Origin: a phage
Sequence record: PZ445447.1
Reading direction: 5' to 3' (one strand)
DNA: 64,000 bases
Numbering within the stretch: position 1 is the first letter of the stretch; each line of letters opens with the position of its first letter. A program made the translations under genes and the position numbers. The notes under the pieces are model-generated. The model had not been told where the DNA came from. It searched no databases and saw nothing but the letters and a program-made list of their open reading frames with translations. Of the stretch, positions 33,274-42,052 are shown piece by piece.

Positions 33274-33669
33274 TTACTGAAACAGTGCGGATAAATTACC
33301 TTCTGGTGGGAACTTATCTGCCAAAAACGGTGTTAGCACAGTAGCCTTCTGAAGATCTGGGGTCCACTCGTTGTTCAGAACATCCCAGTAGTACGCAATG
33401 TTGCTGTGTGGGTGCCGCATTACGAACTTTTTCCCTTCGTAGTCATCTGAAACCTCTACAGAAGAAATAACAACAGAATCTTCAAGGGTTTCTTCATAGA
33501 AGGATCCACCTTCAAATTTCCAACGAGATGCAAGAGCCCCTGCCTTGAACGCTGCAGATAACGGACTGTCGGCAAGAACATACATTTCTTGCACTCTGTC
33601 GCTGCGATCTTTGCTTCTTACGTTGTATACAGTATCTGAGCTATACTTAACACGGTATAGGCTTACCAT
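33274..33669 (-). CDS. hypothetical protein, paralog of 35481-35879 (family B)
   Basis: GAGGAGG RBS; shared VMRHPHSNIAYYWDVLNNEWTPD versus VIVHPDSRVKHYWNARTKTWTPF. Confidence 0.6.
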   Translation of the reverse strand: MVSLYRVKYSSDTVYNVRSKDRSDRVQEMYVLADSPLSAAFKAGALASRWKFEGGSFYEETLEDSVVISSVEVSDDYEGKKFVMRHPHSNIAYYWDVLNNEWTPDLQKATVLTPFLADKFPPEGNLSALFQ

Positions 33670-34001
33670 TACCGCACCTCCTCAATAACTTCCACATCTG
33701 AACCTACCACAAATGCAAAAGGACAGGTTTCATGAAAGATATCCGGATCGCCGCCAAGCTTGCTAACAATTTCTCCACCACTAATAAACACAAGCTCACC
33801 GATATTCATCAGATTGCTGAAATAGTACCCATAATGATTAAAGAATGCAGCAGGGTCAGGTAGACTAGTAGCCTCAAGCACTACATCGGTTGAGGTTACT
33901 TTCTTATCATAACCTCTCGCCTTTTGAGATGCAAGATCTGCAGAATCCTCAGGCGACCGGAGATGCACAGGAATTGTTTCACCAATAAAGCGTACTTTCA
34001 T
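33669..34001 (-). CDS. small protein, paralog array member (family A)
   Basis: ATG (MKVRFIGE) in frame with ORF 33669-34028; ends ...DVEVIEEVR. Confidence 0.55.
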   Translation of the reverse strand: MKVRFIGETIPVHLRSPEDSADLASQKARGYDKKVTSTDVVLEATSLPDPAAFFNHYGYYFSNLMNIGELVFISGGEIVSKLGGDPDIFHETCPFAFVVGSDVEVIEEVR

Positions 34002-34360: not shown

Positions 34361-34630
34361 TTATTCCTCTACAATCTCATACACATCAGGAGTTACAATC
34401 AACTCTTCTCCGTTACCCGGTGCAACAAACACCACCAAACCTTCAGGTGTGTGCTTTTTAGCCATCTCGATAACATCTTCTCGCAGAGCTGGCTCCATAA
34501 GATCAAAACCTTCACCTAGGGCATCACGAACCACCTTCATATAGTCCACTGGTTGTGCTTCAACAATCATGCCTTCAACCAGTCCACAATTTTTGTCTGC
34601 CAGCTCAGTTTGGAATAATTTAATTTTCAT
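34361..34630 (-). CDS. small acidic protein, paralog array member (family C)
   Basis: GAGGAG RBS; ends ...DVYEIVEE. Confidence 0.6.
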   Translation of the reverse strand: MKIKLFQTELADKNCGLVEGMIVEAQPVDYMKVVRDALGEGFDLMEPALREDVIEMAKKHTPEGLVVFVAPGNGEELIVTPDVYEIVEE

Positions 34631-34656: not shown

Positions 34657-34758
34657 TTAATAGCCGTAACCTAACACATTAACTACAACTGCGATTGCAA
34701 ACATAATTTCAAAGCATGCAATCTCTACATTTGGGACTAATTTCTTAATCACACCCAT
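34657..34758 (-). CDS. hypothetical small hydrophobic peptide (33 aa)
   Basis: GAGGTG RBS then ATG; not in ORF track. Confidence 0.3.
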   Translation of the reverse strand: MGVIKKLVPNVEIACFEIMFAIAVVVNVLGYGY

Positions 34759-34767
34759 TGTAGCACC

Positions 34768-35088
34768 TCATTCTCCAAAGTCAATCTTTACTTTGCCTTT
34801 CCCCTTACCTTTCTTTCCACCGCATTTAGCCAGCTGACGTGCTGCAACATCTACCATACGGTCAGTTGCCTCGTAAGCATCACTGCCTTTAGCCTTGGCA
34901 ATAACTTCTTTTCCAGAATTGTCAAAAATGAACGCCATAACTTCCTGGTGATCATTTTCAACTTTTACACTCACACGTGCATAGTTAACAGAGGGATGTA
35001 AACGCTCCAGCTTGGACATTTTGCGGGAAATAAAAGATACCATACCTTCTGTGATTTCTACATTGTTGCCAGTGATTTCAATCTGCAT
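34768..35088 (-). CDS. hpf: ribosome hibernation promoting factor / RaiA (YfiA) family protein
   Basis: MQIEITGNNVEITEG...KVENDHQEV...GSDAYEATDRMVDVAARQLAK lines up with E. coli HPF as I recall it (MQLNITGNNVEITEA...KVEKV...GQDMYAAIDGLIDKLARQLTK); own minus-strand promoter. Confidence 0.85.
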   Translation of the reverse strand: MQIEITGNNVEITEGMVSFISRKMSKLERLHPSVNYARVSVKVENDHQEVMAFIFDNSGKEVIAKAKGSDAYEATDRMVDVAARQLAKCGGKKGKGKGKVKIDFGE

Positions 35089-35137
35089 AACGTGTTCCTT
35101 TTAAGGAAGAGGGAATAACTATCTCTCTTTGAAAACA

Positions 35138-35166
35138 ATGATACTAAATCTGAAGCGTTGTGTCAA
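35138..35166 (-). promoter_or_regulatory. sigma70-type promoter for hpf (minus strand)
   Basis: Minus-strand TTGACA, 17 nt spacer, TATCAT. Confidence 0.6.
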
Positions 35167-35480: not shown

Positions 35481-35879
35481 TCAGTTTAGCTTTTCTTCAA
35501 CAACCCCATAACTTGGGGCAGAGTCAAGAGCTTTCTGGTTTAAAAGTGGCGTAGCAGAATCTGCAAACGGTGTCCAAGTTTTTGTTCTGGCATTCCAGTA
35601 ATGCTTCACTCTGGAATCTGGATGCACTATAACAAAAACTTTTTCACTTGTCAACACATTAATTTCTTCTACACCCTTGCTGATAATTTCTCCGTCATAG
35701 CCCCCAGTCTGGTATCCTTCGTACCAGGTTCTTGCATAGGCATAGCCAGCCTGCCAGCATGCAGCCTCCTCCGAGGTGGAGACTACGTAGAAGTCTTTCT
35801 CAAATTCTGGAATACGCCCTTGCTTTACGCTCCAAGCCCCGCGAATTTTCATTGTAACTTTAAACAGTTTATTTTTCAC
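35481..35879 (-). CDS. hypothetical protein, paralog of 33274-33669 (family B)
   Basis: 132 aa; HP..YW..TW/TP motif shared. Confidence 0.6.
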   Translation of the reverse strand: MKNKLFKVTMKIRGAWSVKQGRIPEFEKDFYVVSTSEEAACWQAGYAYARTWYEGYQTGGYDGEIISKGVEEINVLTSEKVFVIVHPDSRVKHYWNARTKTWTPFADSATPLLNQKALDSAPSYGVVEEKLN

Positions 35880-35891
35880 AACGGTTACCCA

Positions 35892-36146
35892 TCACAGCTC
35901 TACAATATCTGCATCTGACCCTACCCCAAAGGCATAGTAGGACTCTTCCCCGAAATAATATTCAGGTGCACCAGCGGTGATCAGGTCTGATCCCAAGATA
36001 AACACCACGTTGTGGCCTACATAACTGTGATGTTGCCGCACAGGATCATCCCACGGCAACCCTTCAAAGTATACCGCAGGAACGACCTTTCCATTCAGGA
36101 AGGATTGTCCCAAGTAGACGTTAGAATCAAGAATTTTAACCTTCAT
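35892..36146 (-). CDS. small protein, paralog array member (family A, MKVK-LDS type)
   Basis: GGAGGA RBS; starts MKVKILDSNVYLGQ. Confidence 0.65.
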   Translation of the reverse strand: MKVKILDSNVYLGQSFLNGKVVPAVYFEGLPWDDPVRQHHSYVGHNVVFILGSDLITAGAPEYYFGEESYYAFGVGSDADIVEL

Positions 36147-36360
36147 GATCGTCCTCCACTACCTCTACATCCTCACCTAGGGCAAAGTTATAGGTCCACT
36201 GACTGTCAAAGCATTCCTGAGATGCACCAGCGGCAATAAGATCTGCTCCTTTTATTTTTAAAAGGTCAGGGTAATCTTCGTTATGGACAGCAGTAAACAC
36301 TTTTCCTACTAAAGGCTCCTGACCAATATAGAAGCTTGAATCTAAAACTTTAACTTTCAT
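36136..36360 (-). CDS. small protein, paralog array member (family A)
   Basis: GGAGA RBS; starts MKVKVLDSSFYIGQ; ends ...DVEVVEDD. Confidence 0.65.
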   Translation of the reverse strand: MKVKVLDSSFYIGQEPLVGKVFTAVHNEDYPDLLKIKGADLIAAGASQECFDSQWTYNFALGEDVEVVEDDHEG

Positions 36361-37930: not shown

Positions 37931-38164
37931 TCACTCCTCCACAACTTCAAGGCCTTTACCGCCTCGCTCTGGCAGATTACTTAAAGATAGGTAATACATA
38001 TAATCAGGAGAGATCCTGCCAGACTCTGCACCTGCAGCTAGTAAATCCTTCCCTTTAACCAGGACAACATTCTCGTTTGCAGATAGCCGTTTTGCTTCCA
38101 CAATTTTACCAACACAGTCAACCAAGGAAGGGTACCCTAAATCTGTAAGAAATTTAACTTTCAT
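37931..38164 (-). CDS. small protein, paralog array member (family A)
   Basis: AGGAGG RBS; starts MKVKFLTDLGYPSLVD; ends ...GLEVVEE. Confidence 0.65.
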   Translation of the reverse strand: MKVKFLTDLGYPSLVDCVGKIVEAKRLSANENVVLVKGKDLLAAGAESGRISPDYMYYLSLSNLPERGGKGLEVVEE

Positions 38165-38872: not shown

Positions 38873-39157
38873 CTACCAGGTTACTGTCAAGTAGGCAACC
38901 GTGTTATTTTTCTCTGGAGAGATGCCAACAACATCTACCTGCAGACCTCCTGCCCTCAAATCCCCAACAATATGCGGGAAGTAATCTGAGAGATGTGAGG
39001 GTAGATTTATCGAAAATCCGCATCCCAGAAAGCCTGCTAACGCTTTATTTTGTATCTCCCCTACAATCGCATCATAAATGGAGTTAAGCTCGTCAGGGAG
39101 CGTTACAGGACGTTTTAGCGCTAACTGGTGCAACTTGTCCTTAGCACTCATTTTCAT
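38873..39157 (-). CDS. hypothetical protein
   Basis: ATGA overlap with methyltransferase stop; in frame with ORF 38873-39226. Confidence 0.5.
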   Translation of the reverse strand: MKMSAKDKLHQLALKRPVTLPDELNSIYDAIVGEIQNKALAGFLGCGFSINLPSHLSDYFPHIVGDLRAGGLQVDVVGISPEKNNTVAYLTVTW

Positions 39158-39687
39158 TTCAAATCTGCCTCTGGTGGTGCCAACCACATAAATGGCGGCA
39201 AGTCTAGACGGTTTTTCTTGTCCCATACAAAATATGCATATGCCTGACCATCCGTTCTACCATTGGATTGGAATGACGGGCGCTTAGATATTGTGATCAC
39301 AGTGGTAGGTGCATTATCAAGCCACCATTCAAATCTGGCCTTGCTTTCCAGAAAATTAAGACGCAAAAGCATAATAACTACGTCGGCATCTTTCAACGCC
39401 TTGTCTACAAACTCACGAGCCAGACTGTATGGTGGGTTGGTGATAATACAGTCAACATGGTTGTATTCTGTATTCAGATAGTCAACACCTTCTTGGATTT
39501 CTCCCCATGCAGATCCTAACGGCATACGGGAGTAGAACACACCTGAGGCACTATTCCTGCAAGGCTCTAAGTAGGTCCAGTCTTCTGGGAACGGAATAAG
39601 GTCATACAGCCCTTCTGCACACCACTCCGGTGTTACATACTCATCGTAGGCGTTACGTTGTTCATCAGGTTTTCTAGCACAAGTCAT
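39154..39687 (-). CDS. DNA adenine (N6) methyltransferase, phage Dam-like
   Basis: Catalytic motif IV ITNPPYS; GGAGA RBS; 177 aa. Confidence 0.65.
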   Translation of the reverse strand: MTCARKPDEQRNAYDEYVTPEWCAEGLYDLIPFPEDWTYLEPCRNSASGVFYSRMPLGSAWGEIQEGVDYLNTEYNHVDCIITNPPYSLAREFVDKALKDADVVIMLLRLNFLESKARFEWWLDNAPTTVITISKRPSFQSNGRTDGQAYAYFVWDKKNRLDLPPFMWLAPPEADLK

Positions 39688-39738: not shown

Positions 39739-40788
39739 TTAAGCTTCTTCGACAATTCCTGCACCCAGGATTTTTTCATTGAGCTCTTTTGCTGTTTTAA
39801 TAATATTGTCCACCAGACGCTTGCGCGTCTTATCTTTCACCTTAACCTCTTCACCGCCGTTCAGAGTAGTCTTCAATTGAGACAGAATATCCTGAAGTTC
39901 AACGACAGAGAATCTCTGCAGATCTTCTGAAGTAATCTCACTCAGGGCAATTCTGACAGTCTCGCCACTTTCCATCTGCAGATTCAGGAACACAGTGTGA
40001 ACATCACCTTTCGAACCACCCGCTTTTGCAGATTCAACAGCATGAACTAACTCATCTAAAGATGTGCACTGGTGAATCTCCGGAAGACCTGCTTCACCTA
40101 ACACGCCTTCTTCATCACCTTTTGCCAAAAGCTTTTTCGGTTTTTGTCCGTTCTGGATGCGTTGTATGTTGCCTTCATCCAGAATAATAGCTCCAGTGCG
40201 TGCTGCCAGCTCTTCTCCGTCCAACCACACTTCGCCACCAGCTGTGATGGATGCGATCTCATCTTCTGTCAGCACCCCACCGTAGTATTTTTCGATCAGG
40301 CGTTCAAAACGTTTTTTCCAGTAGCTGACCTGAGTATTCATGTTCACACCGTTACCATAAGTGCCACCTTGATAGTAGTGGAACATAAACTCTGTGTCCG
40401 GAGCCACAGTACGTTCTTTACAACCAAGCCATAAGATTGTTCCAGCAGAGCAGCACATCCCTTCAGCATGTGCAACAACGCTTGCCTGAGACTCGCGGAA
40501 TGCCTGCAGATAAGCCATTGCAATGTGCACGCAACCCCCAGGACTATTGATGATCACCCGAATGCTTTCTTCCGGCTGAGCCATACGGATCGTCTGCAGA
40601 CGAGACATATGATCTTGTAAGTCTTCCAAATCGTCGATATAAAGAACGTGGTCAACAACAGGTGTTGGGTAGCTGTATGTTTCCATAATACCACCCGGCA
40701 TACCAAACATTTTATTACTCATAGGTTCGAAACCGTTCTGTTTTTCTTTCATGCCGTGTACCATGGTGCTGCGAGGTGTTAAATTCAT
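39739..40788 (-). CDS. ClpP/S14-like serine peptidase with C-terminal extension
   Basis: INSPGGCVHIAMAY (ClpP INSPGG-like) and GMCCSAGTIL (catalytic Ser region); about 150 aa extra C-terminal helical domain. Confidence 0.65.
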   Translation of the reverse strand: MNLTPRSTMVHGMKEKQNGFEPMSNKMFGMPGGIMETYSYPTPVVDHVLYIDDLEDLQDHMSRLQTIRMAQPEESIRVIINSPGGCVHIAMAYLQAFRESQASVVAHAEGMCCSAGTILWLGCKERTVAPDTEFMFHYYQGGTYGNGVNMNTQVSYWKKRFERLIEKYYGGVLTEDEIASITAGGEVWLDGEELAARTGAIILDEGNIQRIQNGQKPKKLLAKGDEEGVLGEAGLPEIHQCTSLDELVHAVESAKAGGSKGDVHTVFLNLQMESGETVRIALSEITSEDLQRFSVVELQDILSQLKTTLNGGEEVKVKDKTRKRLVDNIIKTAKELNEKILGAGIVEEA

Positions 40789-41263: not shown

Positions 41264-42052
41264 TTACTCGGAAACAGGGGTCCAAATATGATTTGCACGA
41301 TCCTCGATAAGATTGAGTGCAATCTGACGACCCAACCCGGAACGAACGACATCATCTGGACTATCAAAGCTGATCATTCCAACCTCAGGATCTGGATGGC
41401 GAGTAAAGAAATCCGTCACCCATGCAAGGCCAGATTTACCAGGGATGTCACGTTGGCTATTATCACCCATAATTACAAGGGTGGCTTGATCAGAGATCCT
41501 TGTGATAATTGACAACATTTCTTCAGGGTTAGTTTGCTGTGCCTCGTCAATCAGGACAAAGCATCGCTCATCGAAACTACGACCACGAATGCTTTCAACT
41601 TCACAAATCTCGATACGACTGTTCTGACCGTCTCCCAGCATTGCGGCAAAAGCACCTTTGCCAACACGGAGACAAATCGTGTCCATCATGCTTCGAAGAT
41701 AGGGCCACAGTTTCTGCATTGCATTTCCAGGTTTAAATCCTGAAGTCTTTCCTGTCTGAACGTAAGGGCGTGCAACAATGATCTTATCAATCTCGTTCTT
41801 ACGCAGAAGATCACCTGCATATGCAGATGCCATGAACGTCTTACCAGACCCAAACACACCGTTTACAATAATAATCTTACGTGACCCTAGATAATCAAGA
41901 TACTTTTGCTGCTTCTTGTTCATTGGTCGGAGAGCTGGAGCGGTGTGCTCTCTTTCGTCAGCAAATTTCTCAGCAGCCTTACGCAGGCGATCAGATTTTC
42001 TAGCCTCTCTAGCTTCATCACGCATGCGTTTTGTTTCTTTAGCTCGACCCAT
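41264..42052 (-). CDS. phoH: PhoH-like ATPase
   Basis: Walker A GVFGSGKTF; LIDEAQ; GDNSQRD; AAAGGAG RBS. Confidence 0.85.
   Translation of the reverse strand: MGRAKETKRMRDEAREARKSDRLRKAAEKFADEREHTAPALRPMNKKQQKYLDYLGSRKIIIVNGVFGSGKTFMASAYAGDLLRKNEIDKIIVARPYVQTGKTSGFKPGNAMQKLWPYLRSMMDTICLRVGKGAFAAMLGDGQNSRIEICEVESIRGRSFDERCFVLIDEAQQTNPEEMLSIITRISDQATLVIMGDNSQRDIPGKSGLAWVTDFFTRHPDPEVGMISFDSPDDVVRSGLGRQIALNLIEDRANHIWTPVSE

Follow-up and report, generated by a model that had tools for sequence, protein, structure and literature searches.

Does a lytic coliphage that carries a homolog of a bacterial ribosome hibernation factor still direct it at the ribosomes of its host? Viruses that encode components of the translation machinery attract wide interest, and a coliphage that is lytic and bears a hibernation-factor homolog makes a tractable case, with E. 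coli K-12 as host and BASEL phages such as MaxBurger available. The window analyzed here is a stretch of 64,000 nucleotides of phage DNA (PZ445447.1), and the minus-strand open reading frame (ORF) of 106 codons that the initial annotation had described as a ribosome hibernation promoting factor (HPF) is present in the ORF listing with exactly the sequence quoted there (Table 1). A 2-kb stretch around the gene matches Escherichia phage MaxBurger (BASEL Bas54, MZ501093.1) at 100% identity and over 100 further rV5-like myoviruses of Vequintavirus at 97 to 99.9%; judged by its sequence, the window is that of a Vequintavirus, an rV5-like coliphage. Eighteen records named "Campylobacter phage" (MG0656xx; C12, C14, C2, A147, and others), with Campylobacter jejuni given as host, are 97 to 99.8% identical here, and that host attribution is probably wrong. 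The encoded protein is 100% identical to MaxBurger bas54_0155, which is annotated "ribosome hibernation factor" and is surrounded by a long run of small minus-strand genes without known function.

Table 1. Features of the HPF locus, in coordinates of the window
Feature	Coordinates	Strand	Basis and remarks
HPF homolog CDS	34768..35088	-	ATG-to-TGA, 106 aa plus stop; ortholog of rV5 gp144/ORF144
Folded S30AE/HPF core, codons 1-90	34819..35088	-	AlphaFold2, block-mean pLDDT 83-95
Lys/Gly-rich tail, codons 91-106 (GKKGKGKGKVKIDFGE)	34771..34818	-	Predicted disordered; purine-rich, slippage-prone DNA
Predicted sigma70-type promoter, TTGACA-17-TATCAT	35138..35166	-	Consensus scan, 11/12; the published rV5 P144
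Small inverted repeat AAGAGAG...CCCTCTT, predicted 5′ UTR	35107..35128	-	RNA fold, weak
Shine-Dalgarno-like AAGGAA	35095..35100	-	6 nt upstream of ATG; read from sequence
33-aa ORF	34657..34758	-	Starts 9 nt after the HPF stop codon; ORF listing

The novelty implied by the initial annotation does not hold up, as the gene, its family assignment, and its promoter are all already known. Kropinski et al. (2013; PMC3606486) listed rV5 ORF144 as "sigma 54 modulation factor; PF02482 Ribosomal_S30AE" and gave, in their Table S4, the promoter P144 with exactly the sequence found upstream of the gene here; promoter and gene are both annotated in the RefSeq record NC_011041. The gene is carried by about 119 phage records under the names "sigma 54 modulation factor," "ribosome hibernation factor," "hpf," or "RaiA," and some O177 phage records label it "ATP-dependent protease La Type I." An 89-aa ORF downstream (34361-34630, minus strand), which has no Pfam match, is labeled "sigma 54 modulation factor" in APCEc02, nom, navn, SophiaRose, and JLBYU08, a label that looks like a propagated misannotation.

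Mizuno et al. (2019; PMC6375957) counted the HPF of rV5 and its relatives among virus-encoded ribosome-associated proteins and expressed rV5 HPF from pBAD24 in E. coli NM522 under arabinose induction. Using cells at OD600 = 1, they found peptides of the protein in the crude extract and none in 70S or 100S ribosomes after a 500 mM NH4Cl cushion; the 100S peak showed no discernible change, in late-exponential cells that contain few 100S particles. The possible reasons given by the authors were the wrong growth phase, stripping by salt, and a true loss of binding. In essence, this is the expression experiment that the initial annotation had suggested. Our literature search found no phage HPF experiment after 2019, no Vequintavirus transcriptome or 5′-end data, and no timing or infection phenotype for the gene; the LL12 Keio screen paper makes no mention of hpf, rmf, or raiA. 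The sole experiment was negative under conditions that could not be decisive, so that it does not amount to a refutation. The initial annotation had gone further and claimed ribosome silencing and deliberate control of translation, a step taken from homology only, and the published test recovered no peptides from salt-washed 70S or 100S ribosomes; silencing is an inferred role. What we add to the published record is the isolation of the clade (34 to 44% identity to cellular HPF, with a divergence of about 60% from host HPF), purifying selection, synteny with a divergent contig, the loss of particular ribosome contacts, and a tail intermediate between those of HPF and YfiA; these observations sharpen the functional question without answering it.

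Membership of the phage protein in the HPF/YfiA (Ribosomal_S30AE) family is secure, because profile score and predicted fold both pass. Residues 3-89 cover positions 1-83 of the 88 in Pfam PF02482 (Ribosomal_S30AE) with 56.7 bits, above the cut-off of 23.7, and the HPF/YfiA family model TIGR00741 gives 56.8 bits where 40.9 are required. The full-length alignment with bacterial HPF asserted in the initial annotation is borne out over residues 1-90, which phmmer, run on the sequences of the PDB, matches to residues 1-89 of E. coli HPF (2rql, 4v8h, and 6h4n) at E = 4e-15 to 2e-14; with E. coli HPF as the query, tblastn gives 44% identity over 87 residues. An AlphaFold2 model, built from an alignment of phage and enterobacterial homologs, has a mean pLDDT of 83.6 and presents the β-α-β-β-β-α order over residues 2-90 (β1, 2-8; α1, 14-30; β2, 34-44; β3, 47-56; β4, 61-68; α2, 71-90). 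All 35 Foldseek matches in the PDB with E ≤ 0.001 are HPF, YfiA, or pY, with an rmsd of 1.0 to 1.1 Å to the best of them, 4hei and 6h4n_x; the value is 1.0 Å to Vibrio cholerae HPF and 1.1 Å over 89 residues to the HPF inside the E. coli 100S ribosome (6h4n_x). Neither the profile search nor the predicted fold contradicts the family named from the bare sequence.

Models of individual family members score below their cut-offs. The short HPF equivalog NF007780 represents gammaproteobacterial YhbH, which matures RMF-induced 90S particles into 100S, and it scores 65.2 bits against a cut-off of 125; the RaiA/YfiA equivalog NF007654 reaches 22.8 of the 158 bits required. The HPF equivalog is thus far above the RaiA model and is the best-scoring NCBIfam model. 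The format of short HPFs, about 95 aa with about 8 residues after RQLxK, does not fit a protein of 106 aa with an 18-residue tail, and the C-terminal dimerization domain of long HPFs, about 60 to 90 residues after a linker, is absent, the phage protein ending at residue 106 with residues 91-106 predicted to be disordered. Because the RaiA/YfiA equivalog score falls short and the tail is not of the acidic-ended YfiA type, the RefSeq name "RaiA" is best taken as a generic family label.

Searched exhaustively with phmmer, 1.84 billion cluster representatives yielded the protein's own cluster at 126 bits, its representative (P0004) being 64 to 66% identical to the phage protein, and the next match at only 55 bits. 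Cellular relatives are gammaproteobacterial short HPFs, for example from Thorsellia, at 34 to 44% identity, whereas the host HPF relatives among those listed, mostly from Enterobacterales, are 76 to 100% identical to E. coli HPF. A word-indexed homolog search with the phage protein retrieved only 5 close relatives, and the cellular ones were obtained by the exhaustive search and with E. coli HPF as the query. Several matches were set aside: a protein of 1160 aa matched in 8 stretches (P0127), which is repetitive and was matched by chance or composition; another (P0126) resembling an enterobacterial HPF except for its unrelated C terminus, which probably stems from a frameshift or an assembly artifact; and a "Salmonella" phage HPF, as the record filed in the phage collection, AGRM01000002.1, is a 691-kb bacterial contig of Salmonella enterica subsp. 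houtenae bearing the host's own hpf, 95% identical to E. coli HPF. The GC content of the phage gene is 41.7%, against 42.9% for the window. The isolation of the clade, its 34 to 44% identity to cellular proteins, and a GC content of the gene that matches the phage together point to an acquisition that is old and ameliorated, not recent.

P0004 is found on contigs as long as 137 kb from metagenomes and isolate assemblies. In one divergent 126-kb contig, here called L002, about 10 kb read around HPF are syntenic with the window at 29 to 88% protein identity, and HPF, at 64%, exceeds the median of the L002 syntenic proteins. The phage HPF gene is under strong purifying selection: pN/pS is 0.05 to 0.18 among five Vequintavirus alleles, the window and Aya differ by 30 synonymous and 6 nonsynonymous changes, and comparison with the L002 ortholog gives a pN of 0.24, with pS saturated at 0.81.

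Positions that contact the ribosome were taken from cryo-EM lists for enterobacterial and Pseudomonas HPF (bioRxiv 10.1101/2025.10.07.680626) and compared, in E. coli numbering, in an alignment with 136 diverse cellular representatives. The phage protein retains K23, K26, R29, E44, D75, D79, R83, Q84, K87, and K91, and all ten are also the dominant residues among the cellular representatives. K80 is replaced by V, a residue present in 17 of the 136, and K89 by G, at a position that is basic in 122 of them. The other altered contacts are T53 to F, Y30 to L, E51 to M, and H55 to F or D according to gap placement. Positions 80 and 89 likewise lack a basic residue in the L002 ortholog. Because K80 and K89 are two otherwise strongly conserved basic contacts, their loss suggests weaker, salt-sensitive ribosome binding, which would fit the published nonrecovery of rV5 HPF on salt-washed ribosomes.

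Divergence at contact positions might also mean that the S30AE fold has been neofunctionalized, ribosome binding having been lost and the dsRBD-like surface and polybasic tail now engaging another RNA or protein. In favor of such a change are the absence of the expressed protein from purified ribosomes (PMC6375957), the low identity to cellular HPF beside the 76 to 100% among the listed host-family HPFs, the several altered contacts, and scores beneath both equivalog cut-offs. We nevertheless consider it improbable: the retained residues are largely the most invariant ribosome contacts (K23, K26, D75, R83, Q84, and K87), strong selection on exactly that surface is hard to explain without a ribosome target, and the conditions of the negative test may strip the protein, as its authors pointed out (PMC6375957).

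The C terminus has the Lys/Gly-rich character ascribed to it in the initial annotation. The conserved RQLAK is followed by CGGKKGKGKGKVKIDFGE, 18 residues with 6 Lys, 6 Gly, and a net charge of +4, and the AlphaFold2 model has pLDDT < 50 for residues 91-95 and 98-106. Counted from the equivalent of K87, the tail is 18 residues long, compared with 8 in E. coli HPF and 26 in YfiA, where the net charge is -4. Among short HPF-type proteins of cells, 15 to 25 residues is a common tail length (median 20); tail length alone therefore does not predict YfiA-like behavior, and we rejected it as an indicator of either HPF-like or YfiA-like behavior. The Gly-Lys repeat is not kept in the L002 ortholog, although its tail is also basic. 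A C-terminal K-[IW]-D-[FY] motif, present in the tails of the window and L002, was rejected as evidence because it is drawn from two lineages only and because its codons in the window also overlap a promoter-like TTGACT box. The tail DNA (34771-34830, minus strand; GGAAAGAAAGGTAAGGGGAAAGGCAAAG) has single-base indels in the Murica and APCEc02 records that shift the frame and cut the proteins to 99 and 101 aa; these reflect either sequencing errors in homopolymers or natural variation of the tail.

In YfiA, the tail heads toward the RMF site, and YfiA antagonizes 100S formation. A phage protein with an HPF-like core, an intermediate polybasic tail, and two basic contacts missing might plausibly bind ribosomes weakly and reversibly, parking and protecting them or hindering RMF-dependent dimerization. 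Mizuno et al. (PMC6375957) proposed a competitor of this general kind, which would act against hibernation by competing weakly and reversibly with host HPF, YfiA, and RMF, so that 100S dimers are prevented or dissolved and the ribosomes of slow-growing or stationary hosts are freed for phage mRNAs. The HPF-like core is compatible with this proposal, as are the longer polybasic tail, which in YfiA points to the RMF site, the loss of K80 and K89 if it weakens binding, and the failure to survive a 500 mM NH4Cl wash. The proposal is nonetheless unlikely, though with a real chance of being right: no discernible change of the 100S peak was seen in E. coli, albeit in late-exponential cells with few 100S, and an occupant of the A and P sites is itself inhibitory, so that a net benefit would require fast off-rates. 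We give a similarly small but real chance to the protein being not a silencer but a phage-tuned, weakly binding guard of ribosomes or anti-dimerization factor. It would then sit transiently in the HPF site, its polybasic tail would block the RMF site, the 3′ end of 16S rRNA would be protected from host RNases (YbeY, RNase R, or defense nucleases), and ribosomes would be kept as readily reactivated 70S; if true, the benefit to the phage would be greatest on starved or stationary-phase hosts.

The initial annotation also gave the gene a minus-strand sigma70 promoter of its own, and this prediction stands. TTGACA (35166-35161) and TATCAT (35143-35138, minus strand) are separated by a 17-nt spacer and lie in the 84-bp gap that follows the stop codon of the upstream gene (35175-35173). 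Sites scoring at least 11/12 number 19 in the window, whereas 100 dinucleotide shuffles yield 1.35 ± 1.06 (at most 4), a 14-fold enrichment; the nine on the plus strand are all below 26.3 kb and the ten on the minus strand all above 29.1 kb. Being enriched over shuffles and strand-consistent with the gene layout, this class of sigma70-like sites is not a product of chance. Neither hexamer varies among rV5, nom, JES2013, APCEc02, Murica, and Aya, the last with 4 substitutions in the spacer, and the -35 box with its AAACTG flank (AAACTGTTGACACA) recurs in L002, where the orthologous protein is 64% identical. The strand switch of strong sites at about 26.3 to 29.1 kb implies that two transcription blocks converge there, and it matches the unit boundary proposed for rV5 genes 163/164.

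The Shine-Dalgarno-like site is annotated as ribosome_binding_site in the Murica record. The predicted 5′ UTR folds at -7 kcal/mol with z = -0.58 in the window, z = -0.56 in rV5, and z = -2.7 in Aya; a conserved hairpin as a regulatory element was rejected, since it lacks significance in the window and rV5 (z of about -0.6) and is absent in L002. The promoter is close to consensus and the Shine-Dalgarno sequence is good, both of which hint at strong expression, and cellular HPF and YfiA are translation inhibitors; these traits would suit a host shut-off factor such as the initial annotation implied: at high early expression, the protein would titrate free 30S and 70S and globally damp translation, for example starving host defense or stress responses. 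We regard this as very unlikely, since a block of vacant ribosomes cannot tell host from phage mRNAs, and arabinose induction to an OD600 of 1 gave normal ribosome profiles with no toxicity reported (PMC6375957).

The placement of the gene inside an array of paralogous small proteins proved only partly correct: two small paralog families flank the gene, but HPF and its two immediate neighbors are singletons, with no detectable paralog within the window. One family pairs 33274-33669 with 35481-35852 (BLASTP, E = 4e-9), and the other comprises 35892-36146, 36136-36360, and 37931-38164 (BLASTP, E = 4e-15 and 5e-7). Overall, at least two small-protein paralog families, all on the minus strand and including 33669-34001, are interleaved in the early region, with BLASTP E values of 4e-15 to 8e-4 and no Pfam matches.

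The neighboring ORFs, including the 33-aa ORF downstream, likewise have no Pfam match. The 33-aa ORF, which corresponds to rV5 ORF145, a "membrane protein, 1 TMD" in Table S3 of Kropinski et al. (PMC3606486), is probably cotranscribed with the HPF gene and is absent from the divergent locus L002. A second promoter-like site (34757-34784, minus strand; 10/12; TTGACT-16-TACAAT plus an upstream TG) shares sequence with the final HPF codons (K-I-D-F) as well as with the first codon of the 33-aa ORF and could drive this next gene; its L002 equivalent, TTTACA-17-TACACT, is located in an intergenic gap. Upstream of HPF in the same minus-strand block, the ORFs at 39739-40788, 39154-39687, and 41264-42052 (minus strand) correspond by position to MaxBurger genes with the annotations ClpP-like protease, putative N6-adenine methyltransferase, and PhoH-like ATPase. 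PADLOC gave no defense match, and the window contains no Rfam family and no tRNA gene.

Taken together, we favor the reading that the phage protein still occupies the decoding channel of vacant host ribosomes, with a probability of roughly 0.55: the most constrained residues of the family are retained and selection is strong, which argues for this reading, and it is held at that level because the only direct test was negative. The protein is a diverged, single-domain HPF/YfiA (S30AE) protein that, in this reading, Vequintavirus phages took long ago from a gammaproteobacterial host and that has since been kept under purifying selection. Because the gene lies in a minus-strand block of small genes studded with sigma70-type promoters, it would most likely be transcribed early in infection by unmodified host RNA polymerase. 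As in its cellular relatives, the folded core would lie within the decoding channel of the 30S subunit in vacant host ribosomes, where it would overlap A- and P-site tRNA and mRNA positions, with the basic helix α2 against 16S rRNA. HPF, RaiA, and RMF protect 16S rRNA from RNases in starvation (Prossliner et al. 2021, PMC7913689), and the outcome of phage HPF binding may similarly be that idle ribosomes are reversibly parked and their 16S rRNA shielded from RNases, as by the E. coli factors. Since its flexible polybasic tail exceeds the enterobacterial HPF tail by 10 residues, the protein may act more like YfiA/RaiA, through inactive 70S and interference with RMF-dependent 100S, than like HPF.

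Among known systems, the closest is rV5 gp144/ORF144 (ABI79209, YP_002003641), the same gene, with a protein 97% identical to that of the window and with the same position, promoter P144, and downstream 33-aa ORF; MaxBurger, V18, slur12/16, and others encode a protein 100% identical to the window's. The window allele reads GNNVEITE (106 aa) where rV5 reads GNVEITE (105 aa), a difference of one Asn. The Asn-Asn pair is at codons 8-9 (35062-35067, minus strand), rV5 and most relatives having a single Asn, and the 3-nt insertion makes residues 5-14 of the window protein identical to E. coli HPF. Other phage S30AE proteins (phrog_8990; Cronobacter phage GAP32 AFC21633) share the Pfam S30AE domain and its occurrence in large phages, and S30AE matches are also found in Listeria, Enterococcus, and Xanthomonas phage records. 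Their relation to the Vequintavirus HPF is weak (phrog_8990, E = 1e-7), the Vequintavirus clade has its own PHROG, phrog_12469, labeled "unknown function," and GAP32 HPF was placed elsewhere in the tree of Mizuno et al. (PMC6375957); the phage S30AE proteins are probably independent acquisitions. Among cellular factors, E. coli short HPF (YhbH; 2rql, 4v8h, 6h4n, and 6y69) shares with the phage protein its fold, the DxYxAxD...RQLxK motif, most of the basic contact residues, and an identity of about 43% over residues 1-89; the phage protein differs in lacking K80 and K89, in its altered T53, H55, and Y30, and in a Lys/Gly-rich tail of 18 rather than 8 residues after K87. E. coli YfiA/RaiA (protein Y; 1n3g and 4v8i) resembles the phage protein in its fold and in a C-terminal extension past the helix; the phage extension is shorter (18 versus 26 residues), opposite in net charge (+4 versus -4), and without sequence similarity to that of YfiA.
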